DNA of 64,000 bases, taken from Candidatus Nomurabacteria bacterium. GTDB taxonomy: Bacteria; Patescibacteriota; Minisyncoccia; Phycocordibacterales; UBA9973. The DNA is taken from contig JACKGL010000002.1 in assembly GCA_020631955.1 (NCBI GenBank), positions 141,860 to 205,859 of the forward strand, written 5' to 3'. Within the stretch, counting starts at the first letter, position 1, and the number at the start of each line of letters is the position of its first letter. Positions 15,665 through 37,706 of this stretch are shown here, piece after piece. A model generated the notes under the pieces. It was given only the letters and a program-made list of their open reading frames with translations. It did no database searches and was not told the DNA's origin. A program made the position numbers and the translations under genes.

Positions 15665-15737
15665 CCGCCCGTAGCTCAGTTGGTAGAGCAGCTCCCTTTT
15701 AAGGAGATGGTCGTAGGTTCGAATCCTACCGGGCGGA
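15665..15737 (+). tRNA. tRNA-Lys (anticodon UUU)
   Basis: Manual cloverleaf: acceptor CCGCCCG/CGGGCGG, anticodon loop CTTTTAA, T arm GTAGG-TTCGAAT-CCTAC. 73 nt, no encoded CCA. Confidence 0.9.
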
Positions 15738-15749
15738 CACGAACAAAAA

Positions 15750-15772
15750 ACACTCCCTGCGGAGTGTTTTTT
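15750..15772 (+). terminator. Rho-independent terminator after tRNA-Lys
   Basis: ACACTCC-CTGC-GGAGTGT followed by TTTTTT. Confidence 0.65.
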
Positions 15773-15776
15773 GCAT
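15760..15776 (+). repeat. 17-bp direct repeat, copy 1 (CGGAGTGTTTTTTGCAT)
   Basis: Identical to 15900..15916. This copy is the 3' half of the tRNA-Lys terminator. Confidence 0.8.
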
Positions 15777-15899
15777 CATGTCCGAGCCGGAGCAATGTTT
15801 TTGTTTTAAACGAAGCGAGAAGGCAAAAACTGCGAGGCGGGCCCGCGAGATTTTTTCGTCAGAAAAAATACTTGTGGGGACACAAGGACAAAATACCTA

Positions 15900-15916
15900 C
15901 GGAGTGTTTTTTGCAT
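15900..15916 (+). repeat. 17-bp direct repeat, copy 2 (CGGAGTGTTTTTTGCAT)
   Basis: Identical to 15760..15776 but lacks the 5' half of the hairpin. Confidence 0.8.
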
Positions 15917-15945
15917 TGTGCCCTAGTGTGGGTTAGTATTCTAGT

Positions 15946-16425
15946 ATGAAAACAATAAGAGCTTTGTTCCACAATATTCGCAGTGCACACAATATAGGTG
16001 CTATGCTTCGTAGTGCTGATGGTGTGGGTATAAAAGAGGTGTATGTATCTAAAATAGTCCCACTTCCTACTGACAGGTTTGGTAGAGCTCAACCAGAGAT
16101 ATCTAAGACAGCACTTGGTGCAGAAAAGGATATAAAGATAAACGTGTACGAAGATTTTTCTTCTCAAATAAAAAGTCTCAAAGAAGAAGGATTTAAAATA
16201 GTCTTCGTTGAACAATACCCTTCATCTGTAAAATACACAGACATTCATTTTTCTAAAGAAGAAAAAATTCTCATTTGTATGGGAGAGGAAACAAAAGGTT
16301 TTACAGAGGAAGAGATATCTTTAGCAGATGTCATAGTAGAAATACCGATGAAAGGGAATAAAGAGTCGCTCAATGTAGCTACCACTTTTGGTATCATATC
16401 TTTTGCTATACGAGACTTTATCTAA
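15946..16425 (+). CDS. SpoU/TrmH family RNA 2'-O-methyltransferase
   Basis: 159 aa with NIGAMLRSADGVG and C-terminal SLNVATTFGI motifs of the SPOUT fold. Confidence 0.75.
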   Translation: MKTIRALFHNIRSAHNIGAMLRSADGVGIKEVYVSKIVPLPTDRFGRAQPEISKTALGAEKDIKINVYEDFSSQIKSLKEEGFKIVFVEQYPSSVKYTDIHFSKEEKILICMGEETKGFTEEEISLADVIVEIPMKGNKESLNVATTFGIISFAIRDFI

Positions 16426-16996
16426 AGTCTACTGTTCTAGCTATATCAAAAAGTATATTTTGATTTGTTTCTGTCAGGTTGTTGCCATATAGCAAGAGGT
16501 TTTCTCTTGCACCTCTATCTATAAAGACCTCTGTTCTCGTGCCATATATACTTGCAGGTTTTACGTATGTTGTATCAAAGCCATCTATTTCACCATCGGC
16601 AAATATGTATTTAGTATCGGTATCTTTTATTGTTTTTTCTACTAGTGTTCCAAAATCAAACGTATAAGTGACACTACCATTGGTCAGCTCTCCTGAAAAG
16701 GTGTTTACACCTGAGAGCTCGTTGTATGAGAAATCACTAGGCATATAAAATGAAAAGTAAAATGTATCATATCTTATCCATCCTGGAGGGTAAGATGCGG
16801 CTTCTAAAGTAGTTTCTGGTCCACCTACAGTAGGGCCGTAGACTATACTCTCATCGTCTATGTCTTGTCTTGGTGTGATGAAAGCTGCTGTGCCTTGCTC
16901 TTTTACTCTTTGTACACCTCCAGTGATAAACCAAAGTATCCATATCACTATTAGTATAAGTATTAAAAATCTAAAATCTCTAAATTCGCTAGCCAT
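16418..16996 (-). CDS. Membrane-anchored exported protein, unknown function
   Basis: 192 aa with an N-terminal TM helix (FLILILIVIWILWFITGG). Confidence 0.5.
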   Translation of the reverse strand: MASEFRDFRFLILILIVIWILWFITGGVQRVKEQGTAAFITPRQDIDDESIVYGPTVGGPETTLEAASYPPGWIRYDTFYFSFYMPSDFSYNELSGVNTFSGELTNGSVTYTFDFGTLVEKTIKDTDTKYIFADGEIDGFDTTYVKPASIYGTRTEVFIDRGARENLLLYGNNLTETNQNILFDIARTVDFR

Positions 16997-17010
16997 ATAT
17001 TATATGGTAT

Positions 17011-17925
17011 CTATTTTTGGTGCTTATCGCAATAGTGACTACTTCTTCCTGCTATAACTTTTCTTATTATAGTGCCGGAGCAACCTTTTTTTGTACATTT
17101 TTCACCTGTTCTTCTGTATGCGTTGTGTCTGTGTTGGAAAGCGCCACGTTCTCCATATATATTTCTATAATCACTCATAGAGTCACCGCCAAAGTCTATA
17201 CCTTTTTTGAGCACCTTTTTCATTGCTATGAACATAGCTTTATATTCAGAGTCTTTTATATTTCTGACAAACCTGTCTGGTCTTATACCAGAAAGAAACA
17301 GCATCTCGTCGCTGTATATGTTGCCTATACCTACTACTAGAGTCTGATCCAAAAGAGCCTTCTTTATTGGCCAAGAAGGTTTTTTCGATATTCTTTCTTT
17401 GAAGTCTTTTTGTGTGAAGTTTTTTTCTAGTGGCTCGGGACCGAGGTCTTTTAGGTGTTTGGAAGTAAATATTTTATCTGTCTTTTCTATAGTGACCTTG
17501 GCAAACTTTCTAGAGTCGCAAAGTACAAGATGAGACCCATTATTAAGACTAATAACAAAATGCACAAATCTGTTATATGGGTCGCGCAGGGAATCACTAG
17601 AATTTTTGTGAGGAGACCAAGAGTTTGTTTTTTTGTTGTAGTCATATTTTCCATACATCATGTGACCTGTCATCTTCATGTGGACCAATATAGTTTCGTT
17701 GTTGGATAAATGAATGAGAATATTTTTTGCTCTTCTTTCTGATTTTACTATCTTTGCGCCTAAAGATCTTTTTTTGAGATCTTTGAAAAAAGAAGGGTTT
17801 TTTATAGAGTCGGCAAACCTTTTGTCTTTTGAATATAAATCAGTCCAAACATCGGTAATTTTCTTACCGACAGCTGTAGAGCGGATACCTTCTACTGTTG
17901 TGTGGACTTCTGGGAGTTCTGGCAT
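17011..17925 (-). CDS. mutM: Formamidopyrimidine-DNA glycosylase (Fpg/MutM)
   Basis: MPELPEV N-terminus and the C-terminal zinc finger CxxC...CDKHQ. Confidence 0.9.
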   Translation of the reverse strand: MPELPEVHTTVEGIRSTAVGKKITDVWTDLYSKDKRFADSIKNPSFFKDLKKRSLGAKIVKSERRAKNILIHLSNNETILVHMKMTGHMMYGKYDYNKKTNSWSPHKNSSDSLRDPYNRFVHFVISLNNGSHLVLCDSRKFAKVTIEKTDKIFTSKHLKDLGPEPLEKNFTQKDFKERISKKPSWPIKKALLDQTLVVGIGNIYSDEMLFLSGIRPDRFVRNIKDSEYKAMFIAMKKVLKKGIDFGGDSMSDYRNIYGERGAFQHRHNAYRRTGEKCTKKGCSGTIIRKVIAGRSSHYCDKHQK

Positions 17926-17961
17926 GAGTCTACTTTATCGTATGAATAAATAATTGCAAAT

Positions 17962-17985
17962 AAAAAAGCGAAGCTATTGCTTCGC
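17962..17985 (-). terminator. Rho-independent terminator (minus strand)
   Basis: GCGAAGC-TATT-GCTTCGC with a T tract on the minus strand. Confidence 0.6.
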
Positions 17986-17992
17986 CTTATCT

Positions 17993-19153: not shown

Positions 19154-19244
19154 AATATAGCACAAAGAAGGCAGGCCTTCATCTTTTGGGTTTTCACAAG
19201 CAAGGTTGTACAAAATCTTTACATAGTATAAACTCGAGGCAGTT

Positions 19245-20560: not shown

Positions 20561-20736
20561 TACATCTAATAGTATATTAGAATAAGCCTGATTTACCAAT
20601 ACCATGTTGCAAAGTCACAATATTGTGTTATTATTGGCTCGCATGTACGGAAGTGTCTCTCCATACTTGTTTGGAAATAGAGGCTAGATAAAAGGACCAC
20701 CTCATTTTCTAAATATTAGATAAATAATCAAATTAT

Positions 20737-20994: not shown

Positions 20995-20996
20995 AT

Positions 20997-21248: not shown

Positions 21249-21279
21249 AACAAAATCCCGGGAGTCTCGGGGTTTTGTT

Positions 21280-21523: not shown

Positions 21524-21561
21524 TAAGAAATTTTTTAATGTGCCCTCGCCAGGAATCGAAC
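21524..21561 (+). repeat. 38-bp perfect direct repeat, distal copy (displaced tRNA-Arg 3' end plus trailer)
   Basis: TAAGAAATTTTTTAATGTGCCCTCGCCAGGAATCGAAC, identical to 22185..22222. Confidence 0.9.
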
Positions 21562-21566
21562 ACACA

Positions 21567-21595
21567 TTGACTTAATGTATATTTTAGTGTATAAT
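21567..21595 (+). promoter_or_regulatory. Near-consensus sigma70 promoter (TTGACT-17-TATAAT) at the island edge
   Basis: TTGACT at 21567..21572, 17-nt spacer, TATAAT at 21590..21595. Confidence 0.6.
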
Positions 21596-21640
21596 ATAAA
21601 CAATATTTTTATTTTTTCTTTACATAAAAACTGATAAACA

Positions 21641-22144
21641 ATGGGATCTAATAAGTTAGTATTCAACTCCAGGGGTGATAGCGCTTGGGTGGAATTTGCA
21701 AACGGAAAAGAAACGGTATCTTGGGATACCAAGGAAGAGGCTCTTGAAGCCTTAAACGACCTGTTTAATAAGGACAGGATATCTGAGGATGAAGTTAAAA
21801 AGTTTTCAAAGGAAATATTCCTGAAAGAAACTTTTCCTAGTATTTTTGATTCTGTGAGAATTATTGGGGCAATAATTGCTCTCAGTCATTCTTCTCTTGA
21901 ACCGGATTACAAACAAATTGCTAATCCCACATTTGCTGTGTGCGACTGTGGGGCTAAGCCAATTCATGGATATTTCCATGATGATGATAATAACAAGGCA
22001 GGAATGCCTGTTATGTTCAAGAATCAAGCAAGAGACTTCACTAACTGGCTTTTGAAAAATGGTATTGTGTCAGAAGAAGGAAAAACATCTCTGTTCGTAC
22101 AGATAGATATGACAGAACTTCCCGAACACCCACAGGTAAACTGA
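21641..22144 (+). CDS. Island-borne hypothetical protein (167 aa)
   Basis: The only long ORF between the direct repeats. It has no recognised motif and is G+C-richer than its flanks. Confidence 0.55.
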   Translation: MGSNKLVFNSRGDSAWVEFANGKETVSWDTKEEALEALNDLFNKDRISEDEVKKFSKEIFLKETFPSIFDSVRIIGAIIALSHSSLEPDYKQIANPTFAVCDCGAKPIHGYFHDDDNNKAGMPVMFKNQARDFTNWLLKNGIVSEEGKTSLFVQIDMTELPEHPQVN

Positions 22145-22151
22145 TATTTTT

Positions 22152-22179
22152 CAACCGCTCTTTTGAGCGGTTGTTTTTA
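22152..22179 (+). terminator. Rho-independent terminator
   Basis: CAACCGCTC-TTTT-GAGCGGTTG followed by TTTTT. Confidence 0.7.
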
Positions 22180-22184
22180 TCTTC

Positions 22185-22222
22185 TAAGAAATTTTTTAAT
22201 GTGCCCTCGCCAGGAATCGAAC
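22185..22222 (+). repeat. 38-bp perfect direct repeat, tRNA-proximal copy
   Basis: Covers the last 21 nt of tRNA-Arg(GCG) (22202..22222) plus 17 nt of trailer. Confidence 0.9.
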
Positions 22223-22273
22223 CTGGACCGACAGTTCCGCAAACTGACGTTCTATCCATTAAACTACGAGGAC
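22202..22273 (-). tRNA. tRNA-Arg (anticodon GCG)
   Basis: Manual fold: acceptor GTCCTCG/CGAGGGC (one G.U), D arm GTTT-AATGGATA-GAAC as in the other Arg tRNA, anticodon loop TTGCGGA (one U.U at the top of the stem), T arm CCAGG-TTCGATT-CCTGG. 72 nt. Confidence 0.8.
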
Positions 22274-23031: not shown

Positions 23032-23148
23032 AAATAGAGATTATCATATTTGTACTTTTACTACAATTTTGCTAATATGCTCGTACCAGTATTTCTGGTG
23101 AAAAGAATAAAGTATTTGCTAAAAGATACTTTGAAAAATTAAATAAAT

Positions 23149-23235
23149 GGAGGCGTGGCTGAGTGGTTGAAGGCACTTGTCTTGAAAACAAGAGACTGGG
23201 CAACTGGTCCGTGAGTTCGAATCTCACCGCCTCCG
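23149..23235 (+). tRNA. tRNA-Ser (anticodon UGA)
   Basis: Class II tRNA, 87 nt: acceptor GGAGGCG/CGCCTCC, anticodon loop CTTGAAA, long variable arm, T arm GTGAG-TTCGAAT-CTCAC. Confidence 0.9.
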
Positions 23236-23246
23236 CACACGATGGA

Positions 23247-23278
23247 AATACCCAATGCGAAAGCGTTGGGTATTTTTA
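23247..23278 (+). terminator. Rho-independent terminator after tRNA-Ser
   Basis: ATACCCAA...TTGGGTAT followed by TTTTT. Confidence 0.6.
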
Positions 23279-23368
23279 TTGTGCAGAGGGTTGCCGCGAA
23301 TCCTATAAGTTTATGCCCACCTCTGTAAAAACAAAGAGCAAAGCGATTATGTTTTTAAGAGAAGGGTA

Positions 23369-23385
23369 AATCTCGCTCCCTCCGC
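23369..23385 (+). repeat. Degenerate copy of the tRNA-Ser 3' end
   Basis: AATCTCGCTCCCTCCGC versus tRNA AATCTCACCGCCTCCGC: 14 of 17 identical by hand alignment. Confidence 0.6.
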
Positions 23386-23396
23386 CAAGACAATTT

Positions 23397-23411
23397 AGTA
23401 TCGGACGACCC
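23397..23411 (+). repeat. AGTATCGGA(G)NGACCC motif, copy 1
   Basis: AGTATCGGACGACCC, preceded by CCGCCAAGACAATTT as in copy 3. Confidence 0.6.
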
Positions 23412-23471
23412 GAGTGTCTATATTTTGCAACACTTCTGGAGACCTCGATATTCGTAAAAAGTTCGAACCTG

Positions 23472-23486
23472 TGAGGGATTCGAACT
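23472..23486 (-). repeat. Inverted tRNA T-arm-like fragment
   Basis: The minus strand reads GTTCGAATCCCTCAC, close to the tRNA-Ser GTTCGAATCTCAC. No cloverleaf can be built around it. Confidence 0.4.
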
Positions 23487-23560
23487 TTCTGTATTTTTGG
23501 GTATAGGAGTGAGGGGTGACCCACGTGCTTCGAAGAGCTTACACCCCTCATTAAGAATAA

Positions 23561-23576
23561 AGTATCGGAGCGACCC
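23561..23576 (+). repeat. AGTATCGGAGNGACCC motif, copy 2
   Basis: AGTATCGGAGCGACCC. Confidence 0.6.
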
Positions 23577-23633
23577 AGATACTTTATAAAACAGAGACCA
23601 CCTGAAAAGGTGGTTTTTGCTATACTACTAAAC

Positions 23634-24506
23634 ATGAACACGGAAACACTAAAAGATTTTATAGAAACTCATTGGGGTTTTGAAGAGGTTGTCTTGGAAC
23701 TCCTGCAAAATAAGGGCGATAGGTTCGTGTATAAAATCATTTCTAAAGAAGGTAATTTTGTTATTAAAATATCTGATACAGAAAAAACGGTAGAACAATT
23801 CAAGAAAGATTTGTATATGCTTGAATATGGGCCACGCATCGGATTTGACTATGTTCCAAAAATTATAGAGACAAAAGACGGGAGCTCGTATTTACATTTT
23901 CAAAATAGATTTCTTTTCATCATGGCTTTTCTTTCGGGGGAAAGCCCTGAAAACAACCCTCTGGATTGGCATAAAATTGGAGCGCTTACAGCCAGGCTCC
24001 ACAATATTAAAAATTATAAATACACTATCGATTTTAACCCATTGGATAAAAAAGGCGGAGTTGATGAGTTTTCTCAAGCCCTCTCATTTGGGAAGGAGTA
24101 TAGGGAGCTTTTTGCGACACTGCCAGATTTTTCAAACCTACCAAAAACTCCTATCCATACCGATATTGGTCTTCATAATTCTATAAAAAAAGAAAATGGG
24201 GAGATTATTTTCATTGACTGGGATGACGCTGGGATTGGGTTGCGTATTTTAGATATTGGCTTTCCGTTACTATCTCAGTTTGTTGATGAGAATAATATTA
24301 TACATACACAAAACGCCAAAGCCTTTTATTCAAGTTATTTTGAGAATGTACACATTCCTGTTTCTGAGAATGAAAAGAGGATGATATTTGATGCATCGTT
24401 ATTCTTTGCTCTCATTTATTTACGCTATAGTGATGTCGATAAAACATGGCAGCGAATTCAATGGGCTTTGTCTCATCGTGAAGAAATAGAATCAGTGCTG
24501 TTCTAG
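23634..24506 (+). CDS. Aminoglycoside/choline-kinase-type phosphotransferase (APH family)
   Basis: HTDIGLHN (HxDxxxxN catalytic loop) and FIDWDDAG (metal-binding Asp). Start at MNTETLKDF. Confidence 0.7.
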   Translation: MNTETLKDFIETHWGFEEVVLELLQNKGDRFVYKIISKEGNFVIKISDTEKTVEQFKKDLYMLEYGPRIGFDYVPKIIETKDGSSYLHFQNRFLFIMAFLSGESPENNPLDWHKIGALTARLHNIKNYKYTIDFNPLDKKGGVDEFSQALSFGKEYRELFATLPDFSNLPKTPIHTDIGLHNSIKKENGEIIFIDWDDAGIGLRILDIGFPLLSQFVDENNIIHTQNAKAFYSSYFENVHIPVSENEKRMIFDASLFFALIYLRYSDVDKTWQRIQWALSHREEIESVLF

Positions 24507-24601
24507 TACCCCGACCCATACCCCTCAATCCATATTTAAAATATACCACTAGAACGCCTTATGGTGTCTGTAGGTGTGGGTACTTAACCCACGCGGCCCG
24601 C
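24507..24601 (+). repeat. 95-nt cassette-end element, copy 1
   Basis: Runs from the stop codon to GGCCCGC. 57 of 95 positions match 25353..25447 in an ungapped hand alignment, with conserved blocks CCCCGACCCA, CTTAYGGTGTCT, GGTACTKAACCCA and GGCCCGC. Confidence 0.65.
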
Positions 24602-24612
24602 CAAGAAAACAA

Positions 24613-24628
24613 AGTATCGGAGTGACCC
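24613..24628 (+). repeat. AGTATCGGAGNGACCC motif, copy 3
   Basis: AGTATCGGAGTGACCC. A partial fourth copy, GGACGACCCGA, lies at 24646..24656. Confidence 0.6.
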
Positions 24629-24692
24629 GGAGGATTATGATTGTAGGACGACCCGATTAGTCAAGTTTGCATATTTAAGTTAAAATACTGAT

Positions 24693-29239: not shown

Positions 29240-29311
29240 GCCTTCGTAGTTCAATGGATAGAACGAGGGACTTCTAATCCCTTAATGTAGGTTCGATTCC
29301 TACCGAAGGCA
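29240..29311 (+). tRNA. tRNA-Arg (anticodon UCU)
   Basis: Acceptor GCCTTCG/CGAAGGC, anticodon loop CTTCTAA, T arm GTAGG-TTCGATT-CCTAC. 72 nt. Confidence 0.9.
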
Positions 29312-29367
29312 CAATTGCTTTTGATTGTTTTACATGATGAGCAATATAATGTAATATACCTTTACTT

Positions 29368-29440
29368 GCGCGATTAGCTCAGTTGGTAGAGCAGTCCGTT
29401 TACACCGGAAAGGTCGGGGGTTCAAGTCCCTCATCGCGCA
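29368..29440 (+). tRNA. tRNA-Val (anticodon UAC)
   Basis: Acceptor GCGCGAT/ATCGCGC, anticodon loop TTTACAC, T arm GGGGG-TTCAAGT-CCCTC. 73 nt. Confidence 0.9.
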
Positions 29441-29446
29441 CAAAAA

Positions 29447-29501: not shown

Positions 29502-30383
29502 ATGGGATACGAAGAATCATTTCTAGGTAATCTAGATAGGACATTAGAAAAACAAAGAAAGAATATTTTTGAGGACTCAAACAAACTGAAACAAATAGTC
29601 AATAAAATGAAGGAACTCTTCATTATTGATAAACCAGAAATCAGTTCTTTTGGTGATATACACAAGAAAGATGTTATTGATTCAGATTTAGAAAAACTAA
29701 AACAAAGAGAGGTAGATTTTAAAAATAGTGGTTCACAAGAGGATTTGCTCATGATATCAGAAATATTTGAAGGTATTGTTATAGCAGAATCTGAACAAAA
29801 CGAATGGTTGGGGAGTAAAGCTACTGTAACTAGTGCGTCTAGATATGATGATGTTTTTAACGGTGTAGATGCTGTGTGTGAGTTTAGATCGGACGAAGAT
29901 GAAAACAAATTTCTTGCTCTAGGTATAGATGTGACTTTTGGTAATGCTGATTCAGATACTCTAGATAAAAAGTTCTCTAAAATAGAAAAGATGATTAAAT
30001 CAGGAGAGATGACCAATCTGAAGTATTTTAAAGACAGTGAAGGTAGAAATAAGAGTATGTACGCGCCTAAAGTAGTAGTGGGAGCAGACACAAATACAGT
30101 TAAAGAACTCTTTGATTTGTGGGATAAAAAAAAGAATAAAGAGCTTGCGGCTCATCCTTATCAATGTGGAATGGTTTTGACTATACAATATCAACTGTAT
30201 CATTTTTATAAATTAGCTATGGATTATGGTCATGAAAACATAGCTGAATCCTATCGCAATGCTCTTGAGCAAGTAAATGACTTAGTAGAAGAAAAAAAAG
30301 ATATGTACAATAGTATGCTTGAAGATAGTATGAAAGATACTGTTGTGAAAAGATTATGGGATAAAGTTAGACCTAAAGAATAA
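29502..30383 (+). CDS. Hypothetical protein (293 aa)
   Basis: Long ORF with no recognised motif, directly downstream of tRNA-Val. Confidence 0.5.
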   Translation: MGYEESFLGNLDRTLEKQRKNIFEDSNKLKQIVNKMKELFIIDKPEISSFGDIHKKDVIDSDLEKLKQREVDFKNSGSQEDLLMISEIFEGIVIAESEQNEWLGSKATVTSASRYDDVFNGVDAVCEFRSDEDENKFLALGIDVTFGNADSDTLDKKFSKIEKMIKSGEMTNLKYFKDSEGRNKSMYAPKVVVGADTNTVKELFDLWDKKKNKELAAHPYQCGMVLTIQYQLYHFYKLAMDYGHENIAESYRNALEQVNDLVEEKKDMYNSMLEDSMKDTVVKRLWDKVRPKE

Positions 30384-32019: not shown

Positions 32020-32026
32020 TTTTTTT

Positions 32027-32258
32027 GTGTCTTTATTGTACCAAGTTAGAACCTATTTCCAAAGTCGAACCTAATCGCACATCCGTGCGCTAAAGCGCCT
32101 CTGTGCGAAGCACAGAGCTTTTCCAAAGGAAAAGGACGGATATGCGAAATGCAAATGCGGAACGCGAGCGGAAAGAATTTTGCGGAGGACTGGGGGTCTG
32201 GGGGAAAGGGCTCCGCAAAATTTCCGCTTCGTGTGCTTCGCTGTTTTTTGGCTGGGCG
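32027..32258 (+). repeat. IR-A, left copy (232 bp)
   Basis: Checked base by base: the reverse complement of 33980..34211 is identical over all 232 nt. Confidence 0.95.
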
Positions 32259-32407
32259 GGCATTAAGAAAAGAAATACAATATTGAAATTTTGGCAAAGC
32301 CAAAATACATTCTTAGTTTGTGCTTGACCCACCCTCCCATTCGCGCACAAAAATTCTGCTCCCAAAAACAACTAGAAAAAGAGAGCAAAAAATGTTAAAA
32401 TTGCACT

Positions 32408-33973
32408 ATGGAAAATAATGGTTTCAATAAGATTATAAACAACATTAACGAACAAAAAGGAAATTTTGGTGAGCCCCTTATTGAAAAACTTGGTCTAAAA
32501 ACTGGCAAGGAAGTCTCTCTGGTTAAACGTTCTCTTTCCGAAAATTCTGCCATTGGTGTTGGACAAAAAATTGAGGGCAAACTTATCCGTGATGTTCATG
32601 TTGGGCTACCTATTGAATTAGAAAATTCAAACACAAGTCCAATCAAAGAAATAAAAGAGGAACAAGGAAAATATTTTGTAAAAACACTTACTTCTGTGTA
32701 TGAACTTTTTGTACAAGCACAAAAAGTGGGAAATTTTGAGAAAATTTCCCACTTACAAGATGAACTAAAACAAATTGAATCTCATTTAAGTGAACAACCT
32801 GAATCAATCCAAAAAATGTTTCAAGAAATGAAAGACAAATTTTATTCTTCGGTTGAAATAGATAATAAAAAATTTATGTTCACCCAATTAAATGGAAATG
32901 ATGTAATGTCTTGGGTTGAAGATAAAAAAAATCCAGGCAAATGGAAAACTCGTCTTTTCAGGTTTTCTAGTTCAGATCACCAATGGAAATCACTGCCCGG
33001 AGAACGCGATGACGGAAGTTATATGAAAGGTGATGAGGATAGTCCTTTGCATCATTATGTGCAAAGTGCGAAATTAGATAAGAGAATTTATAAATTGATA
33101 AATTCTTTGCCTCAAAAATATAATCATTATTCAGCACAAGAATATTTACCCACTCCCCCGTATGGAGATACCAAAGGTCATTTTTGGAATGAATTTGAAT
33201 TTAAGGAAAATTACCAAACATTAAAAAATAAAGAATGGGCTTCCTACCAAGACTTTTGCCAGAGGTTTTTTAAGGGTTATGAAAGATTTGTGATGGGTGC
33301 TGATGGTTTCAGAAATTTTACTTTAGACGGTGGTCTGTATAAATGGATGAAAAATCTTGAAAGCATTGCAGAGTTTAGAAATATAAAAACTGAACTAGAA
33401 AGATTAAACACTAATCCAGAATATGCTGAGGAGTTGAAGCAAAGCAGTCTTTGGCGAATGGAAAAATTTATCAATGATAAACCGGAAGTTAAACACTTTG
33501 CTGAAGTATACAAACAAAATATTGGTTCTTACGTTGAAAAATGTTTTAAAGCAAGATTTCCTGAAACAATGATGCCTGATTTCAAAAAATGTGTTGATAA
33601 ATACGATAAGGTTGATATTGCTGAACAAGCACAAAAAAATAATATTCATATTGAGGAATACAAGGTAAATAATCCTGAAGGAGACGAATTAGTCTTTGCT
33701 ATGGCATATGACGATAAAGGTCGAGTCTATATTGATAATATTTATGACCCAAGAGTAGAAATTAGTGATTATGGTATTCCAAGCGAAATAGTCCAAATGG
33801 GACATTTGGTTTACAAGCCAGAGGATTATAGACAACAAACATATGCAATTCCTGAAAAATATTTAAATGATAAAAATAGCCACAAGTATATTGACATAAG
33901 TGCATTGTGGGAAAATATCCCAGTGATTAAAAATTTCAAAGAAGAGTTAAGGGTGCGTGGTGTTTTGAAATAA
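32408..33973 (+). CDS. Orphan cargo protein (521 aa) enclosed by IR-A
   Basis: Uninterrupted ORF, AT-rich unlike the flanking repeats, with no signal peptide or recognised motif. Its stop lies 6 nt before the right IR-A copy. Confidence 0.6.
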   Translation: MENNGFNKIINNINEQKGNFGEPLIEKLGLKTGKEVSLVKRSLSENSAIGVGQKIEGKLIRDVHVGLPIELENSNTSPIKEIKEEQGKYFVKTLTSVYELFVQAQKVGNFEKISHLQDELKQIESHLSEQPESIQKMFQEMKDKFYSSVEIDNKKFMFTQLNGNDVMSWVEDKKNPGKWKTRLFRFSSSDHQWKSLPGERDDGSYMKGDEDSPLHHYVQSAKLDKRIYKLINSLPQKYNHYSAQEYLPTPPYGDTKGHFWNEFEFKENYQTLKNKEWASYQDFCQRFFKGYERFVMGADGFRNFTLDGGLYKWMKNLESIAEFRNIKTELERLNTNPEYAEELKQSSLWRMEKFINDKPEVKHFAEVYKQNIGSYVEKCFKARFPETMMPDFKKCVDKYDKVDIAEQAQKNNIHIEEYKVNNPEGDELVFAMAYDDKGRVYIDNIYDPRVEISDYGIPSEIVQMGHLVYKPEDYRQQTYAIPEKYLNDKNSHKYIDISALWENIPVIKNFKEELRVRGVLK

Positions 33974-33979
33974 CTGCCT

Positions 33980-34211
33980 CGCCCAGCCAAAAAACAGCGA
34001 AGCACACGAAGCGGAAATTTTGCGGAGCCCTTTCCCCCAGACCCCCAGTCCTCCGCAAAATTCTTTCCGCTCGCGTTCCGCATTTGCATTTCGCATATCC
34101 GTCCTTTTCCTTTGGAAAAGCTCTGTGCTTCGCACAGAGGCGCTTTAGCGCACGGATGTGCGATTAGGTTCGACTTTGGAAATAGGTTCTAACTTGGTAC
34201 AATAAAGACAC
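33980..34211 (-). repeat. IR-A, right copy (232 bp, inverted)
   Basis: Perfect inverted copy of 32027..32258. Confidence 0.95.
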
Positions 34212-34238
34212 CAGTATTGAACTTAGCGGTTGAGAACC
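34185..34238. other. attP-like quasi-palindromic site centred on the IR-A/IR-B junction
   Basis: GGTTCTAAC (34185..34193) and GTTGAGAACC (34229..34238) are symmetric about CAC at 34209..34211, with further partial arm symmetry. Confidence 0.55.
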
Positions 34239-34355
34239 AACCAAGGAGTGGGCGGCACAAAGTGCCGCCCACGCTGTTTCCCCTGATTTTCCAAACGCAT
34301 TTGGAGCCGCGCCTGCGGCGCGGCGCACTGTTTTTTCGCCAAGAAGCAGGTTCGA
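34209..34355 (-). repeat. IR-B, left copy (147 bp, inverted; includes a duplicate of the recombinase 3' coding end)
   Basis: Checked base by base: the reverse complement equals 35932..36078. It overlaps IR-A by 3 nt. Confidence 0.95.
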
Positions 34356-34437
34356 AATCAGAATGCAATTTTGGCATAGTATTTGCTTTGGATACAAAAA
34401 GAATTTTTGTTTGAAAATATTTTTGCTATACTGGAAA

Positions 34438-34530
34438 TGTTGTAACCAATTATTAGTTAGTCAGCAGAAAGGGCTATTCCAGATATCTTGACTAACGTTG
34501 AGGTTACAACACTGGAGTGGCCCTTTCTGC
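34438..34530 (+). promoter_or_regulatory. Structured recombinase leader with interleaved perfect complementarities
   Basis: Pairings: A 34438..34447 with 34502..34511 (10 bp); B 34456..34463 with 34489..34496 (8 bp); C 34464..34474 with 34520..34530 (11 bp); D 34478..34482 with 34512..34516 (5 bp). It ends 15 nt before the ATG. Confidence 0.5.
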
Positions 34531-34545
34531 TTGAAGAAAAAATAT

Positions 34546-36111
34546 ATGCAAAAATTCTTTTTGTATGCTCGCAAGAGCACCGATGTCGAGGATAAACAAG
34601 TGTTGAGTATCAAAGCTCAATTAACAGAGTTGCGCGCTTTCGCCAAAAATGAAAAGTTGGAAATTGTTAATGAGTTTGTAGAAAAGCGTACCGCTAAAGT
34701 TCCAGGTCGCCCCATTTTTGGCGAAATGATGAGACGAATTGAGAAAGGTGAAGTAAGCGGAATATTATCATGGCACCCCGATCGTCTGGCGCGCAATTCT
34801 GTGGACGGCGGACAGATAATCTACTTTCTCGACATCGGAAACCTTGCGAGCCTCAAATTCCCTAGCCACTGGTTTGAAAACACGCCACAGGGCAAATTCT
34901 CGCTGTCCATGGCATTTGTCCAAAGCAAATACTATGTAGATTCTCTTTCCGAGAACACGAAACGCGGACTTCGCCAAAAAGTGAGAATGGGTATATTTCC
35001 AAGCCAAGCGCCAGTGGGATATTTGAATGATAGCCGAACAAAAACGATTGTAGTTGAAAAGAAAAAATCTCGCATTGTGCGTTTGGCTTTCGAGCGATAT
35101 GTAAAAGGCAATCAAAGGTTAGAAGATATTGCAGAATTTTTGGCGAAGTCCGGTATTACAACCCGAACCGGAAAGAGAATCTCCAAAACCAAAGCGTCTT
35201 TTATCCTATCAAATCCGTTTTATATCGGCTTATTCAAATACAGTGGTGAACTCCACGAGGGGAAGCACGAGCCAATCATTTCAAAGAAACTTTTTGATGA
35301 AGCACAGGAAATGCTAAAACTTCGTGGTCAACCCGAAAGAAAACCACAAAATGAACCTCAACCATTTTGCGGTCTCATTTCCTGTGCTTCTTGTGGAATG
35401 ATGATAACTGGCGAACACAAATTCAAACGGCAGAAGAATGGGAATGTCCACGAGTACACATATTATCGCTGTACGAAAAAACGAAAAGATTTTATCTGCA
35501 AAGAATCTGCCGTTAGAGAGGAAGAAATGAATCGCCAGTTATCATCCCTCATTCAAAAAGTTTCTTTGCCTAAAGACTGGGCGGAGGAATTATTGAAAAT
35601 GGCGGAAAATGAACACAAAAACTCCGCCCAGTCTTTAACTGCTTGTGTGAAAGAGAAAGAAACGAAAATATCTGAAATTTCACAAAAGCTAGAGCGACTT
35701 CTTAACGGATATTTAGACCAAATTGTTGACGAGCAAGATTATCGAAATCAAAAAGCAAAATTATTGTCCGAGAAGAAGTCGCTTCAAGAAGAAATTTCAG
35801 ATTTTTCACACAAGCAGAATGATTGGCTCGAACCGATGAAAGAATGGATAAAAGACGCACAATCCTTGGACAAAATTGCTTCTGATGATGACCTTTTTGC
35901 AAAAAAGGTCAAAGCCAAAGAAATCTTTGGCTCGAACCTGCTTCTTGGCGAAAAAACAGTGCGCCGCGCCGCAGGCGCGGCTCCAAATGCGTTTGGAAAA
36001 TCAGGGGAAACAGCGTGGGCGGCACTTTGTGCCGCCCACTCCTTGGTTGGTTCTCAACCGCTAAGTTCAATACTGGTGCGCAGGAGAGGACTTGAACCTC
36101 CACACCCGTAA
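34546..36111 (+). CDS. Large serine recombinase
   Basis: Resolvase-type N-terminus YARKSTDVEDKQVLSIKAQ (catalytic Ser) and HPDRLARN, a recombinase domain, the zinc ribbon CGLISCASCG...YYRC, and a coiled coil. The last approximately 60 codons lie in IR-B and the tRNA. Confidence 0.85.
   Translation: MQKFFLYARKSTDVEDKQVLSIKAQLTELRAFAKNEKLEIVNEFVEKRTAKVPGRPIFGEMMRRIEKGEVSGILSWHPDRLARNSVDGGQIIYFLDIGNLASLKFPSHWFENTPQGKFSLSMAFVQSKYYVDSLSENTKRGLRQKVRMGIFPSQAPVGYLNDSRTKTIVVEKKKSRIVRLAFERYVKGNQRLEDIAEFLAKSGITTRTGKRISKTKASFILSNPFYIGLFKYSGELHEGKHEPIISKKLFDEAQEMLKLRGQPERKPQNEPQPFCGLISCASCGMMITGEHKFKRQKNGNVHEYTYYRCTKKRKDFICKESAVREEEMNRQLSSLIQKVSLPKDWAEELLKMAENEHKNSAQSLTACVKEKETKISEISQKLERLLNGYLDQIVDEQDYRNQKAKLLSEKKSLQEEISDFSHKQNDWLEPMKEWIKDAQSLDKIASDDDLFAKKVKAKEIFGSNLLLGEKTVRRAAGAAPNAFGKSGETAWAALCAAHSLVGSQPLSSILVRRRGLEPPHP
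35932..36078 (+). repeat. IR-B, right copy (147 bp)
   Basis: About 57% G+C by hand count (84 of 147). It contains perfect hairpins GCCGCGCC-GCA-GGCGCGGC and GTGGGCGGCAC-TTT-GTGCCGCCCAC. Confidence 0.95.
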
Positions 36112-36160
36112 GGGCACATCCACCTCAAGGATGCTTGTCTACCAGTTTCAACACCTGCGC
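36074..36160 (-). tRNA. tRNA-Leu (anticodon GAG), class II
   Basis: 87 nt including CCA. It aligns arm for arm with E. coli-type tRNA-Leu: acceptor GCGCAGG/CCTGCGC, anticodon loop TTGAGGT, long variable arm, T arm GGAGG-TTCAAGT-CCTCT. The last 5 nt lie inside IR-B. Confidence 0.9.
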
Positions 36161-36176
36161 AAGACAAAGTGCTTAG

Positions 36177-36205
36177 ATATTAACAAAAGAACACTTAATA
36201 ATCAA
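36177..36205 (-). promoter_or_regulatory. tRNA-Leu promoter (TTGATT-17-TAATAT on the minus strand)
   Basis: -35 at 36205..36200 and -10 at 36182..36177, about 17 nt upstream of the tRNA 5' end. Confidence 0.5.
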
Positions 36206-36249
36206 ACTGCTTTTTAGAGCTCTGTTTTCGTGATATCATATAAGGTATT

Positions 36250-36588
36250 ATGTTGAAAGATAAGAAGTGTATCCCTTGTGAAGATGAGAATGCAAAAGCT
36301 ATAGATCCATTGCTTTTGGACGAGTATTTACAAGAGATAAATGATTGGGAAATATCAGATGATAAAAAAAGTATTAGCAAGAAATATGTTTTTAGAGATT
36401 TTGTAAAGTCATTAGAATTTGCCAACGCAGTAGGAGATATCGCAGAGATAGAAGGACATCATCCAGATATCAACATTTCTTACAACAAAGTGAAGCTCAC
36501 TCTTACTACACACAACATAGGAGATCTTACAGAAAACGACTTTATATTAGCGGCCAAGATAAACGCACTAGATAATATATTTATATGA
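36250..36588 (+). CDS. Pterin-4-alpha-carbinolamine dehydratase (PCD/DCoH)
   Basis: 112 aa; EGHHPDI motif and ...LTTH....LTENDF. Confidence 0.85.
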   Translation: MLKDKKCIPCEDENAKAIDPLLLDEYLQEINDWEISDDKKSISKKYVFRDFVKSLEFANAVGDIAEIEGHHPDINISYNKVKLTLTTHNIGDLTENDFILAAKINALDNIFI

Positions 36589-37580
36589 TATTAGCAATAA
36601 CAAACGTAATACTAGGTATAATAGGCTTTTGTATAGCCTTCTATATTTTTCATAAGAAAAGTCACGAGACAGCGCTGGTGTGTCCTATAGGAAGTGACTG
36701 TGACGCAGTGGTGCACTCAGAGTACTCACATTTTATGGGTGTATCTGTAGAAAGGCTCGGTATGGTTTATTATCTACTTATTACGATCTTTTATGCTTTT
36801 GCTATCTTTTTCCCAACCCTTACAAATGGATTGATACACTTTATCATGCTTGGTATTACCTTAGGATCTTTTCTATTTTCTGCATACTTGGTATCTGTAC
36901 AAGGTTTTGTTATACACGAATGGTGTGCTTGGTGTTTAGGAAGTGCAACTGTTTCTACAATGATATTTTTAACCAACTTCTTATTGGTAGACTTGGAGGT
37001 GACTTACTACCTTGTACAATATAAGGGGCTCATAGTAATTCTTCATGGAGTAGCTGCCGCTATAGGGGTAGGAGGAGCTACTATTACCGATACACTGTTC
37101 TTCAAGTATCTTTCAGATAAGAAGATCTCTAAAGAGGAAGCTAGCACACTTAAAACCCTTTCTACTTTGATATGGTTTGCTCTGGGACTATTGGTGCTTA
37201 CTGGCGTAGGACTTTATATGCCAGAAAAAGAAACATTACTACAAACACCAAAATTCTTGGCGAAGATGATAGCCGTAGCTGTGCTTATAGTAAACGGTGT
37301 AGCCCTCAACTTCATAGTTTCTCCTAAGATAACAAAGATAAACTTCGACGATCAAGAACCTATCAGAGATATAAAAAATGATATACTTCGCCACGTAGCT
37401 TTTGCTTTAGGGGCTGTATCTATTATCAGCTGGTACTTTGTATTTATACTTGGGTCTTTAAGAAGTACAAACATGACTTTTGATAACATAATACTTATTT
37501 ATCTACTTGCTTTAGTTATCGGGGTATTGGGGAGCCAATTTTTTGCCGAACACATAAGAAGAAAGGATTCTCTAAAATAG
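36585..37580 (+). CDS. Vitamin K epoxide reductase (VKOR) family membrane protein with extra C-terminal TM domain
   Basis: CPIGSDCDAV loop cysteines and a CAWC active-site motif in a TM helix. Confidence 0.65.
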   Translation: MILAITNVILGIIGFCIAFYIFHKKSHETALVCPIGSDCDAVVHSEYSHFMGVSVERLGMVYYLLITIFYAFAIFFPTLTNGLIHFIMLGITLGSFLFSAYLVSVQGFVIHEWCAWCLGSATVSTMIFLTNFLLVDLEVTYYLVQYKGLIVILHGVAAAIGVGGATITDTLFFKYLSDKKISKEEASTLKTLSTLIWFALGLLVLTGVGLYMPEKETLLQTPKFLAKMIAVAVLIVNGVALNFIVSPKITKINFDDQEPIRDIKNDILRHVAFALGAVSIISWYFVFILGSLRSTNMTFDNIILIYLLALVIGVLGSQFFAEHIRRKDSLK

Positions 37581-37633
37581 TAGACACACATAGTACATTT
37601 TGGTATAAAGATATAGCCAATTTCTTGGTATAT

Positions 37634-37706
37634 GGTGTCTATAGTGTAATGGTTAGCACTAGAGTTTGTGGAACTCTCAGTTCGGGTTCAAATCCCGATA
37701 GACACC
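37634..37706 (+). tRNA. tRNA-His (anticodon GUG) with encoded G-1
   Basis: G-1 plus acceptor GTGTCTA/TAGACAC, discriminator C, anticodon loop TTGTGGA, T arm TCGGG-TTCAAAT-CCCGA. Confidence 0.9.

Follow-up and report, generated by a model that had tools for sequence, protein, structure and literature searches.

Does the DNA that lies behind the tRNA genes of a Nomurabacteria genome arrive there by integration, and if so, through one recombinase or through several? In the window, by which we mean the whole stretch of 64,000 nucleotides analysed here, the original prediction placed seven tRNA genes between positions 15665 and 37706, and all of them are real: ARAGORN finds 7/7 at these places, and 6/7 also reach the Rfam gathering score, the call of tRNA-Leu coming from ARAGORN only.

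tRNA genes and lineage-specific DNA

15665..15738, + strand: tRNA-Lys(TTT) (ARAGORN, Rfam)
22201..22273, - strand: tRNA-Arg(GCG) (ARAGORN), with the proximal repeat copy at 22185-22222
23149..23236, + strand: tRNA-Ser(TGA) (ARAGORN)
29240..29441, + strand: the pair tRNA-Arg(TCT) and tRNA-Val(TAC) (ARAGORN)
36074..36160, - strand: tRNA-Leu(GAG) (ARAGORN), its CCA and trailer supplied by a large serine recombinase (LSR) element
37635..37708, + strand: tRNA-His(GTG) and an unoccupied attB, core ACCCA at 37704-37708

The housekeeping backbone is syntenic in about 35 distant relatives, in the order RuvA-S20-tRNA-Arg(GCG)-h153-tRNA-Ser-RuvX-tRNA_bind-VTT-PilM and, continuing after PilM, tRNA-Arg(TCT)/Val-RluA-L19-tRNA-Leu-(PCD-VKOR)-tRNA-His. 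The order and orientation of tRNA genes differ among relatives, including those of the Arg(TCT)/Val pair, which is itself kept.

By tblastn on relatives' loci of up to 20 kb around L19, a test that short or fast-evolving proteins can escape, nine genes of the window have no counterpart (Trx83, h71, ORF167, APH, h219, cupin94, ORF521, ORF344 and h369), and all nine lie in tRNA 3' flanks; h142 is one counterpart-less gene outside them. Near-identical strains differ by five indels in 15.7-48.8 kb. Three are found at tRNA 3' ends, namely the Ser insert, the alternative Leu cargo and the His island. A 258-bp indel with an 8-nt overlap falls inside a gene away from any tRNA. The claim that tRNA 3' flanks act as landing zones is thus supported, both by three of the five strain indels and by the location of nearly all counterpart-less genes.

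Repeat-framed units and the Lys and Val flanks

21524..21561, - strand: distal 38-nt repeat copy, a partial tRNA-Arg(GCG) 3' end plus trailer, by its identity to 22185-22222
21641..22144, + strand: ORF167, the only gene of the Arg-GCG insert
23237..24597, + strand: Ser insert, by its precise absence from L007
23610/23634-24506: APH-family kinase gene, sole gene of the Ser insert (Pfam APH)
~24572-24597: pseudo-tRNA 3' end, a degenerate 26 nt, GTGGGTACTTAACCCACGCGGCCCGC
15778..15883, + strand: tRNA-trailing structured mini-element of ~105 nt, core of the '140-bp insert', by its homologous copies
29502..30383, + strand: ORF293, after tRNA-Val

At tRNA-Arg(GCG), an exact 38-nt direct repeat (21524-21561 versus 22185-22222, 100% identical) combines 22 nt of tRNA 3' end, starting at GTTCGA in the T-loop, with 16 nt of trailer. 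The interior between the two copies measures 623 bp (21562-22184) and holds a promoter-like TATAAT, the ORF at 21641-22144 and a terminator hairpin at ~22148-22180. ORF167 has no match in Pfam, NCBIfam or PADLOC, no tblastn match in relatives' loci, and only a self-match among 5.8 billion proteins, which makes it an ORFan. The insert has a tRNA 3'-part direct repeat at both ends and no integrase gene, ORF167 being its single gene. Since no empty site was found, the insert being present in every spanning contig of near-identical strains (~12), it is the repeat by itself that points to integration here.

The Ser insert, by contrast with Arg-GCG, has an empty counterpart. In contig L007, from a sister strain, the tRNA-Ser 3' end is joined directly to window position 24598 with a 4-nt overlap, CCGC, and the 1,361 bp at 23237-24597 are therefore a real presence/absence polymorphism. 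They comprise a terminator hairpin, ~330 nt of non-coding DNA, the APH-family kinase gene and the pseudo-tRNA 3' end, with no integrase gene, and their ends show dyad symmetry with the short CCGC core at the tRNA terminus. The empty site of L007 has CCA encoded after the tRNA-Ser discriminator, whereas the occupied window does not. The sister species L225 has the APH gene, the pseudo-tRNA end and the terminator as one contiguous block, with 80% nucleotide identity but away from tRNA-Ser. The unit is old, being common to the sister species, and was still precisely lost in one strain. This polymorphism could represent a deletion between two imperfect tRNA-like repeats, instead of recombinase-mediated excision. 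Two junction styles had been proposed for the window, with Ser paired with Leu; the two styles are confirmed, but because of its degenerate 26-nt tRNA-like repeat the Ser junction is classed with Arg-GCG rather than with Leu.

Behind tRNA-Lys there is an imperfect 31-nt direct repeat (84%; 15756-15786 and 15896-15926), and the 140-bp unit contains no gene. Copies of its ~105-nt core in L071, L170, L191 and L158 share 77-84% identity with it. Of its 16 nhmmer matches, most have a same-strand tRNA within ~25-125 nt, and the best four lie 38-41 nt 3' of one. The Lys unit thus belongs to a multi-copy family of structured elements that sit ~40 nt 3' of tRNAs in other Patescibacteria. Compensatory changes occur at 12/24 predicted pairs, and the element belongs to no Rfam family at gathering score, with only chance-level matches at E <= 1; instead of being an insert, it may be a functional RNA linked to tRNAs. 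Repeat-bounded or recombinase-bearing inserts had been claimed at four tRNAs: those at Arg-GCG, Ser and Leu are borne out as such, while at Lys the repeat is real but the unit is this gene-less element.

Orphan genes had likewise been reported after tRNA-Val and tRNA-His. At Val, the stop of ORF293 overlaps the RluA start, and weak positional homologues (25-27% identity) occur in two distant relatives, L195 and L204; most relatives lack the gene and have a Val-RluA gap of ~130 nt. ORF293 is probably not an insert. The His gene, ORF344, turns out not to be an insert with respect to sister strains, as described below.

Serine recombinase elements at tRNA-Leu and tRNA-His

32027..32258, + strand: arm A, attL core GTG at 32027-32029, its first ~37 nt forming the P' half-site
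32408..33973, + strand: cargo gene ORF521, in cargo segment B (32259-33979)
33980..34355: internal inverted attP (attP*), arm A' (33980-34211) abutting arm C (34209-34355), core CAC at 34209-34211
34546..36111 (alternative TTG start at 34498), + strand: large serine recombinase gene (Pfam domains)
35932..36078, + strand: arm C', ending in the P half-site, attR core GTG at 36076-36078
37746..38780, + strand: ORF344, lineage-specific gene

The Leu element is 4.05 kb long, with hybrid attL and attR sites and the core GTG (3-nt overlap). Its recombinase ORF runs on across arm C' and the core of the crossover as far as tRNA-Leu, which it enters. The product matches Resolvase (PF00239, E = 5e-20), Recombinase (PF07508, E = 2e-18) and Zn_ribbon_recom (PF13408, E = 3e-7), and the catalytic motif YARKS (R9, K10 and S11, the nucleophilic serine region) is invariant in three divergent LSRs. 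By its domains and hybrid att sites this is an LSR integrative element, predicted to enter by attP x attB recombination. It was also compared with SCC-type Ccr recombinases, an identity that we reject: the best NCBIfam match, CcrB, reaches 129.7 bits versus a cut-off of 900, and the target is a tRNA, not rlmH (orfX). Most relatives have the tRNA-Leu gene in the opposite orientation, and so the deduced left arm of attB may not be the ancestral trailer.

Two pairs of perfect inverted repeats organise the element, arm A (232 nt) with 33980-34211 and arm C' (147 nt) with 34209-34355, and its attP half-sites are GGTTCTCAAC and GTTAGAACC. The reverse complement of attP* is P arm-GTG-P' arm, precisely the sequence that joining the element ends would give, and attP* matches the family attP profile with nhmmer E = 7.9e-58. 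A circular form would hold two inverted attP-bearing repeats separating an LSR module from a cargo module. Other strains carry alternative cargo at the Leu site, and L016 and L017 match arm A for the first 37 nt only before continuing into different cargo. ORF521 has no match in Pfam, NCBIfam or PADLOC; it has 68 homologues, all of the source-named ones being from Patescibacteria, and a 71%-identical homologue is the cargo of another LSR element, in L049.

The Leu LSR has at least 569 relatives across Patescibacteria. The 3' end of the LSR gene abuts a convergent tRNA 3' end in 65/69 loci, representing 22 anticodons, and relatives of 62-85% identity use 22 anticodons. The family crosses over at the discriminator-CCA: in 17 other complete elements, all with both inverted-repeat pairs, a core of 3-11 nt overlaps it, and GAACC occupies +20-24 of P' and +16-20 of the tRNA arm. 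The attB half-site would be the universal T-arm, and the use of 22 different tRNAs by close relatives would thereby be explained. The layout tRNA/C'-LSR-C/A'-cargo-A (in the window, A-B-A'/C-D-C') is kept, which leaves an intact inverted attP inside the element, and segments occur in both orientations among genomes (L063, L071, L074 and L086). The 17 elements share no conserved second gene beside the LSR, and their heterogeneous cargo includes no common replication gene and no primase, helicase or polymerase at all. Among viral contigs there were only 3 weak matches, and no circular contig was seen. We found no description of this family in the literature; it is widespread and apparently undescribed.

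Such a double inverted-repeat layout might be suspected of being an assembly artefact, produced by a mixed population of integrated and excised or inverted forms. The arms are perfect over 147-232 nt, close to a short read length or the largest k-mer, and many contigs end within them; contigs L022 and L024, with an 'inverted LSR segment', can be explained as ambiguous graph paths, and L022 appears chimeric (its left flank is foreign, its right flank 100% identical). Against this, the layout recurs in the 17 other complete elements, which stem from unrelated assemblies made with different assemblers; in several of them the arms are only 92-97% identical, so that assemblers can phase them. It is also found with a 46%-identical LSR at tRNA-Gln (L049), and in decayed versions with 83-88% arm identity (L063 and L087). 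We consider an artefact extremely unlikely.

The tRNA-His site is empty in the window, whereas sister strains carry at exactly this point an 11.8-kb island with a second LSR (LSR2), only 30% identical to the Leu LSR. L022 and L024 part from the window after 37708, and L041 and L043 resume it at 37704, which gives the core ACCCA (37704-37708). In L041 and L043, ORF344 follows downstream of the island, and with respect to sister strains it thus belongs to the chromosomal flank of the His site and is no insert; tblastn finds no homologue of it in relatives' loci. An LSR2-like gene adjoins tRNA-His in the distant relative L204.

Agents of integration and known systems

We think it quite likely that the window is a deeply conserved Nomurabacteria (Patescibacteria) backbone of housekeeping genes whose tRNAs are attachment sites, and that the lineage-specific DNA 3' of them came by site-specific integration through at least three unrelated agents. 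One is the LSR elements, acting at the extreme tRNA 3' end and recombining at the discriminator-CCA, as seen at Leu here and at His in sister strains. Another would yield inserts framed by a duplicated segment from T-loop to tRNA 3' end, perfect over 38 bp at Arg-GCG and degenerate over 26 nt at Ser; such a duplication is the footprint typical of tyrosine-type integrases, and other partial-tRNA repeats in the phylum (n=7) also begin at the T-loop GTTCGA. The third would be the structured mini-element of ~105 nt that trails the tRNA at Lys. Newer arrivals would enter next to the tRNA and displace older ones outward, giving stacked micro-islands. Within the window, out of a genome of 643 kb, the gene tables hold no Phage_integrase match and no recombinase gene besides the Leu LSR; the Arg-GCG and Ser units, having no recombinase, would be remnants or cis-mobilisable units.

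It is important to weigh this reading against one that dispenses with integration, in which tRNA flanks are weakly constrained intergenic zones, open to the gain, loss and reshuffling of genes through ordinary illegitimate or homologous recombination, the Ser variant being a microhomology deletion and the Arg repeat a local tandem duplication. The missing empty Arg-GCG site, the mere 4 nt in common at the Ser junction, the 258-bp indel remote from tRNAs and the shuffled tRNA order and orientation of relatives all suit such an account. However, three independent junctions (Ser, Leu and His) fall within the terminal 5 nt of a tRNA, two recombinase genes are located exactly at such junctions, the Arg repeat begins precisely where the seven other partial-tRNA repeats do, and the Ser deletion end-points are homologous positions of the tRNA and the pseudo-tRNA end. 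We regard recombination of this non-specific kind as improbable.

The original prediction was instead that the recombinase-less Lys, Arg-GCG and Ser micro-islands are non-autonomous cassettes moved in trans by the Leu LSR. These inserts do lack recombinases, many tRNAs serve as targets across the LSR family, the Ser ends are dyad-symmetric around a short core at the tRNA terminus, and LSR-less derivatives that keep the family arms exist in the relatives L195, L166 and L184, which makes mobilisation in trans a reasonable idea for this family, though not for the inserts in question. The insert ends do not bear it out: the Leu arms are found nowhere else in the window, and the family attP profile (nhmmer) matches only the element's own three sites, with nothing at Lys, Arg-GCG, Ser, Val or His and one extra match at E = 4.8. 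Moreover, the Arg-GCG and Ser junctions are T-loop-to-3'-end duplications, not 2-5-nt cores; the 38-bp identity block at Arg-GCG is incompatible with a 2-bp serine-recombinase crossover, the distal Ser end is a tRNA-spaced pseudo 3' end and not a P arm, and the His island has its own divergent LSR. A single system driven by the Leu LSR is therefore not supported, and we judge it very unlikely. Taken as a whole, the predicted observations hold for the larger part, their confirmation being partial, and their interpretation is partly supported, and we return to integration by several agents.

Many islands and prophages at tRNA genes are integrated by tyrosine recombinases, and their recombinase-less derivatives are known as cis-mobilisable elements (CIMEs). 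The window resembles these in its integration at the tRNA 3' part, its direct repeats of a tRNA 3' segment (Arg-GCG and Ser), the accretion of successive inserts and the att-flanked units without integrase. It differs in having no tyrosine integrase, and in that the Arg-GCG and Ser units are tiny, at 0.66 and 1.36 kb with one gene apiece.

The tycheposons of Prochlorococcus are defined by a tyrosine-recombinase lineage of their own, in which each tRNA has one integrase type, and by replication hallmark genes; a minority carry a large serine recombinase (10.1101/2020.12.28.424599). As in that system, a streamlined genome keeps its flexible genes in islands anchored at few tRNA genes, and small, cargo-carrying elements are flanked by partial tRNAs. 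Unlike tycheposons, the elements here have an LSR, whose close relatives use 22 tRNAs, a twin inverted attP layout and no visible replication module. We thus do not assign the Leu element to the tycheposons, its recombinase being an LSR and its cargo holding no primase, helicase or polymerase.

With phiC31/Bxb1-type recombinases, SCCmec Ccr and multi-targeting LSRs, the Leu LSR shares the architecture of Resolvase, Recombinase and Zn ribbon. Its very short hybrid attL/attR core, dyad-symmetric attP half-sites and half-site motif moved outward in attP relative to attB are also those of known LSR elements, and its non-autonomous relatives recall pseudo-SCC elements. Unlike known LSR elements, it targets the tRNA discriminator-CCA, apparently read via the T-arm, and has a conserved internal inverted attP. 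Closely related enzymes with many targets were described by Durrant et al. 2022, who do not mention tRNA, inverted repeats or Patescibacteria; their multi-targeting clade is mostly with DUF4368 (PMC10083194), which the Leu LSR lacks.

A serine recombinase beside segments whose flanking inverted repeats hold its sites is reminiscent of the invertases Hin, Gin and Cin. Those, however, are small, enhancer-dependent and non-integrating, whereas in the Leu family the recombinase gene itself lies within one invertible segment, and a flip alters no gene junction except the last 11-15 LSR codons. Recombination of attP x attP is not normal for LSRs, and LSR excision requires a directionality factor. 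The yeast 2-micron plasmid (FLP/FRT) differs in that FLP is a tyrosine recombinase, whereas for the Leu family no origin or Rep gene was found and no free circle observed. By deduction from the integrated form, in the window and in 17 other elements, the circle would nevertheless resemble that plasmid in having two target-bearing inverted repeats and two unique segments, one of them encoding the recombinase, and its inverted attP sites would parallel those of engineered recombinase-mediated cassette exchange.

Gene order around the tRNA genes

The window is almost identical to a contig of 643,671 bp (GCA_041402165.1, Candidatus Nomurabacteria bacterium, Patescibacteria), and many metagenome contigs of closely related strains also match it closely. 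We compared near-identical strains via exact-protein look-ups, one sister species (L225), and distant relatives represented by two sets of 80 loci, one anchored on ribosomal protein L19 and the other on the recombinase. A RuvX-anchored metagenome scan gave no relatives, and the L19 anchor was used instead.

ARAGORN recovers all seven tRNA genes of the original prediction, exactly where they had been placed. Their neighbours are mostly housekeeping genes according to Pfam (PolA, SpoU, Fpg, RuvA, S20, a tRNA-binding protein, RuvX, PilM, an RluA-type pseudouridine synthase, L19, PCD, VKOR and PurA). At gathering score, tRNA is the sole Rfam family across the window; a looser search (E <= 1) of the Lys and Ser flanks likewise gave none besides tRNA. 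ORF167, ORF521, ORF293, ORF344 and h219 have no match in Pfam, NCBIfam or PADLOC; the remainder of the window holds no additional tRNA and no additional recombinase, and its gene content is ordinary.

The order shared with relatives is RuvA-S20-tRNA-Arg(GCG)-h153-tRNA-Ser-RuvX-tRNA_bind-VTT-PilM-tRNA-Arg(TCT)/Val-RluA-L19-tRNA-Leu-(PCD-VKOR)-tRNA-His. Measured against the L19-anchored loci, this order is broken within the window almost exclusively at tRNA 3' flanks, and the view of these flanks as landing zones is borne out at the level of both strains and species. The integrations involve at least three agents. A trans-acting mobilisation system had been suggested, with the large serine recombinase (LSR) at tRNA-Leu as its only candidate, and shared motifs between insert ends and the LSR half-sites as a check. 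A single system driven by this LSR is not supported: in the window the attP profile matches the Leu element's own three sites only, and the other junctions differ in type.

Some rearrangements were seen alongside. Among relatives L132-L211, tRNA-Arg(TCT)/tRNA-Val, tRNA-Leu(GAG) and tRNA-Ser flip in order and orientation while gene order is otherwise conserved, and the window has h153-tRNA-Ser-RuvX-tRNA_bind as an inverted block, with break-points at tRNAs. Two strain-level indels lie away from tRNA 3' ends:

23110-23147: 38-nt segment just upstream of tRNA-Ser, missing in contigs L005, L007 and L031
19062-19319: 258-bp segment within an AAA_28 gene, missing in L001 and L034, with an 8-nt overlap

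The tRNA-Leu element and its relatives

The recombinase-bearing insert predicted at tRNA-Leu is indeed present, as an element of 4.05 kb (32027-36078) with one cargo gene, ORF521, and a recombinase with Resolvase, Recombinase and Zn ribbon domains (Pfam). Its junctions read TAATTTTTTT[GTG]TCTTTATTG (attL) and CAATACTG[GTG]CGCAGG (attR). The GTG core overlaps C72-A73-C74 of tRNA-Leu, and the CCA is supplied by the element. We did not expect what lies between the junctions, namely two abutting pairs of perfect inverted repeats:

32027-32258 and 33980-34211: arms A and A', bracketing the cargo
34209-34355 and 35932-36078: arms C and C', bracketing the recombinase
TAATTTTTTTGTGCGCAGGAGAGG: predicted empty attB at tRNA-Leu

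The reverse complement of the junction between A' and C is exactly the sequence of the joined element ends, that is, an intact attP in inverted orientation. At the Leu site, other strains match the window over the first 37 nt of arm A and no further; different cargo follows (a RelB-like fusion protein, a peptidase S51).

This arrangement recurs. Scanning one genome per species gave at least 569 relatives; the best 80 share 62-85% identity and represent many Patescibacteria classes. Among 69 loci with enough sequence, the 3' end of the recombinase overlaps a convergent tRNA 3' end in 65, and the recombinase segment is flipped in four. The targeted tRNAs comprise 22 anticodons and nine amino acids. 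The C/C' repeat is found wherever sequence suffices, many contigs terminating inside it, and 17 loci with long flanks have a second repeat pair around 1.4-6.9 kb of cargo. The same layout occurs at a tRNA-Gln (L049), where the recombinase is only 46% identical and the cargo includes a 71%-identical homologue of ORF521. Because some arms are only 83-97% identical, the twin-repeat layout is not an assembly artefact. Arm identity averages 98% within an element, as opposed to 70-94% between elements, and the arms are therefore either kept alike or young.

The core always overlaps the discriminator-CCA, reading GTG for tRNAs with A73 and GAG for tRNA-Gly. The motif GAACC lies at +20-24 in the element-side arms, versus +16-20 in the tRNA T-arm; on its trailer side, attB shows no conservation. 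We infer from these positions that the enzyme recognises the universal T-arm.

The cargo of the family is mixed: class I and class II aminoacyl-tRNA synthetases, HaeII/Dcm/Vsr restriction-modification, PPDK, an aminotransferase, glutamate dehydrogenase, a reverse transcriptase and a Shedu nuclease. The synthetases include four class-II enzymes and two of TrpRS/TyrRS type.

Loci with these cargo segments: L064, L066, L089, L093, L104, L120-L122, L126, L127, L119, L071

Recombinase-less derivatives that retain the family's P and P' arms of attP were also found:

L195 6265-7807
L166 1136-1554
L184 2158-6547

The recombinase module of L166 has collapsed exactly at the palindromic GC hairpin common to both C arms, which suggests a simple route to non-autonomous copies. 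In L087 (7692-9607), a recombinase module lies between the 3' ends of tRNA-Arg(CCG) and tRNA-Leu(CAG), each tRNA being joined at its CCA to a P arm (arm identity 87.6%). It has the look of a fossil left after recombination of each attP copy with a tRNA, and shows that the two copies are both able to react. A scan of viral contigs with the LSR alignment gave only three weak or partial matches, and there is thus no sign of a phage-borne family.

Further features of these loci deserve mention. The window's recombinase ORF (34546-36111) runs through arm C' and the crossover core, and its last 11-15 codons therefore come from the tRNA when the element is integrated, and from arm A when it is circular or flipped; such a C-terminus resembles integration-dependent switches. 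The GC hairpin of the C arm (GTGGGCGGCACTTTGTGCCGCCCAC) is kept across the LSR family with compensatory changes. At L049, a perfect 104-nt tandem duplication (3565-3772) is found directly upstream of tRNA-Gln and takes in its 5' part; this tRNA-Gln adjoins another LSR element.

Several other readings of the element were weighed. Contigs L024 and L022 were considered as proof that the LSR segment inverts in the window's own population, and were rejected: the 147-nt perfect arms exceed the k-mer length of assembly (k = 141), so that orientation is not resolvable in either. Support for flipping comes instead from other genomes (L063, L071, L074, L086). L022 (1-3270) has a foreign left flank (L19, tRNA-Leu(+)) and a right flank 100% identical to the window, joined by a recombinase gene of 97% identity; L022 is probably an assembly chimera, made from two species in one sample whose elements are near-identical. 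Hairpin-telomere and dumbbell-donor models, considered on paper, predict inverted duplication of chromosome arms, and none was seen. A replication role for ORF521 was likewise set aside, since its homologue in L049 (5790-8559) directly follows a small HTH gene and precedes a Shedu-like nuclease (SduA_C), and the cargo of other elements is unrelated. The ORF521 family (window 32408-33973) has no Pfam domain and counts 68 homologues, and all source-named members are from Patescibacteria; its gene neighbourhood in L049 hints at a possible role in defence or as a toxin.

Flanks of the other tRNAs

The 38-bp identity reported at tRNA-Arg(GCG) is an exact direct repeat of 38 nt:

21524-21561 and 22185-22222: repeat copies, composed of the 22 3'-terminal nt of the tRNA (from the T-loop GTTCGA) and 16 nt of trailer

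The intervening 623 bp hold a TATAAT-like box, ORF167 and a hairpin terminator. Searched among 5.8 billion proteins, ORF167 matched only itself. No empty site occurs among the sister-strain contigs carrying the exact flanking proteins; all spanning contigs are occupied and the short ones simply end inside the 38-nt repeat. We therefore infer integration at this site rather than witness it. In distant relatives, tRNA-Arg(GCG) directly follows S20, whereas in the window Trx83, h71 and ORF167 stand between them, and the relatives' loci contain no counterpart of any of the three.

Eight duplications running from T-loop to tRNA 3' end turned up when 348 tRNAs in the fetched loci were scanned. In L103, two different tRNAs are each trailed by an insert of about 110 nt; the two inserts have a common core, and after each comes the 3' end of the tRNA concerned. 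The Arg-GCG junction style is thus a recurring, separate system. It agrees with the footprint expected of tyrosine-type integration, but the window contains no tyrosine-type integrase. The L103 inserts (2393-2680 and 3096-3400) are at tRNA-Lys and tRNA-Leu. Inserts of about 110-200 nt with this duplication style stand behind tRNAs in L103, L184, L186 and L207; the reverse complement of that tRNA's T-arm precedes each insert, and a copy of the tRNA segment from T-loop to 3' end comes after it.

At tRNA-Ser, contig L007 joins the tRNA end to 24598 with a 4-nt overlap (CCGC) and lacks 23237-24597. A de Bruijn assembler cannot make such a join on 4 nt, and the indel is therefore a real variant. 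The far end of the insert (GTGGGTACTTAACCCACGCGGCCCGC) mimics a T-arm and acceptor end spaced as in a tRNA, dyad symmetry is apparent in the reconstructed ends, and CCA is encoded at the empty site (L007), not at the occupied one (window). The sister species has an APH protein 82% identical to the window's; there the run of APH gene, pseudo-tRNA end and following terminator is unbroken, at 80% nucleotide identity, and lies 2.8 kb from tRNA-Ser, the gap holding HisRS and two further genes. The Ser unit is therefore old. On this comparison L007 has lost it precisely, and newer DNA has entered nearer the tRNA in the sister species. Neither APH nor the adjacent h219 has a counterpart in the distant relatives' loci. 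A short motif, AAGTATCGGAnnGACCCG, repeats in intergenic DNA around the APH gene:

Window: 23398-23425, 23558-23585, 24610-24640, 24645-24668
L225 (sister species): 8960-9000, 10038-10098, 10862-10958

The 140-bp repeat-bounded unit at tRNA-Lys holds a sequence of about 105 nt that is 77-84% identical to copies in distant relatives. Its profile finds 16 copies, most of them some 25-125 nt from a same-strand tRNA and behind different tRNAs; in the four best the distance is 38-41 nt on the 3' side of the tRNA, and five occur inside one 19-kb locus.

Copies of the Lys element
Window: 15778-15883
L170: 1071-1175, 6947-7044, 9168-9264
L071: 17159-17261
L191: 4223-4327
L208: 2231-2309

Compensatory changes affect 12 of the 24 predicted base pairs, Rfam contains no matching family, and no polymorphism was seen among strains. 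A single-copy conserved ncRNA gene was considered and set aside, as the sequence is multi-copy and follows different tRNAs in different genomes. We take it for a tRNA-trailing structured mini-element or RNA, a candidate new family of either kind. At its 5' end it is complementary to the final 5-6 nt of the tRNA that precedes it.

Orphan genes had been noted directly after tRNA-His and tRNA-Val. ORF344, after tRNA-His, is not an insert relative to sister strains. Two sister-strain assemblies diverge from the window at 37708 and rejoin it at 37704, and between these points carry an island of about 11.8 kb; the window is therefore the empty site and ORF344 its chromosomal flank. The island encodes a second LSR, 30% identical to the Leu LSR, along with an HTH-M78/DUF4411 pair, an N6/N4 methyltransferase with a ResIII helicase, a hydrolase and a NUDIX protein, and has no inverted-repeat layout. 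ORF293, after tRNA-Val, is probably no insert. It overlaps RluA, and two relatives have positional homologues, 25-27% identical. In most relatives the gap measures only about 130 nt.

The internal attP and known systems

A tentative and rather doubtful reading of the Leu elements is that they form an undescribed, phylum-wide Patescibacteria family of small LSR elements, which would enter the discriminator-CCA of essentially any tRNA via its T-arm and carry a functional pair of inverted attP sites. Under this reading, the layout would keep a live attP within every integrated copy. To our knowledge, an intact inverted attP inside an integrated element is neither predicted nor explained by current models of LSR directionality. 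Three candidate roles may be envisaged. The internal site could allow attP to be regenerated without a directionality factor, for example by arms folding back in single-stranded DNA that these naturally competent hosts take up; it could serve module flipping, as in the 2-micron plasmid; or it could serve to capture a second tRNA site, a use to which the fossil L087 points.

Routes of gene exchange in the Candidate Phyla Radiation (CPR) are poorly understood. If the reading is true, LSR elements would be a major gene shuttle of these bacteria. With aminoacyl-tRNA synthetase and central-metabolism genes in its cargo, the family offers a concrete vehicle for the patchy gene content of CPR genomes. 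The serine integrase lineage appears to rest its specificity on a structural constant of all tRNAs, and near-identical enzymes would have about 20 landing sites per genome, which bears on both CPR genome evolution and integrase engineering. Because of the repeats of LSR elements, CPR assemblies often break beside tRNAs.

Our literature search found no description of an LSR family that targets tRNA ends and has twin attP sites. Multi-targeting LSRs are already known (PMC10083194), as are tRNA-anchored islands in streamlined genomes, for example tycheposons (bioRxiv 10.1101/2020.12.28.424599). The parking of flexible genes at tRNA 3' ends is a known theme, seen here at base-pair resolution in a CPR bacterium.
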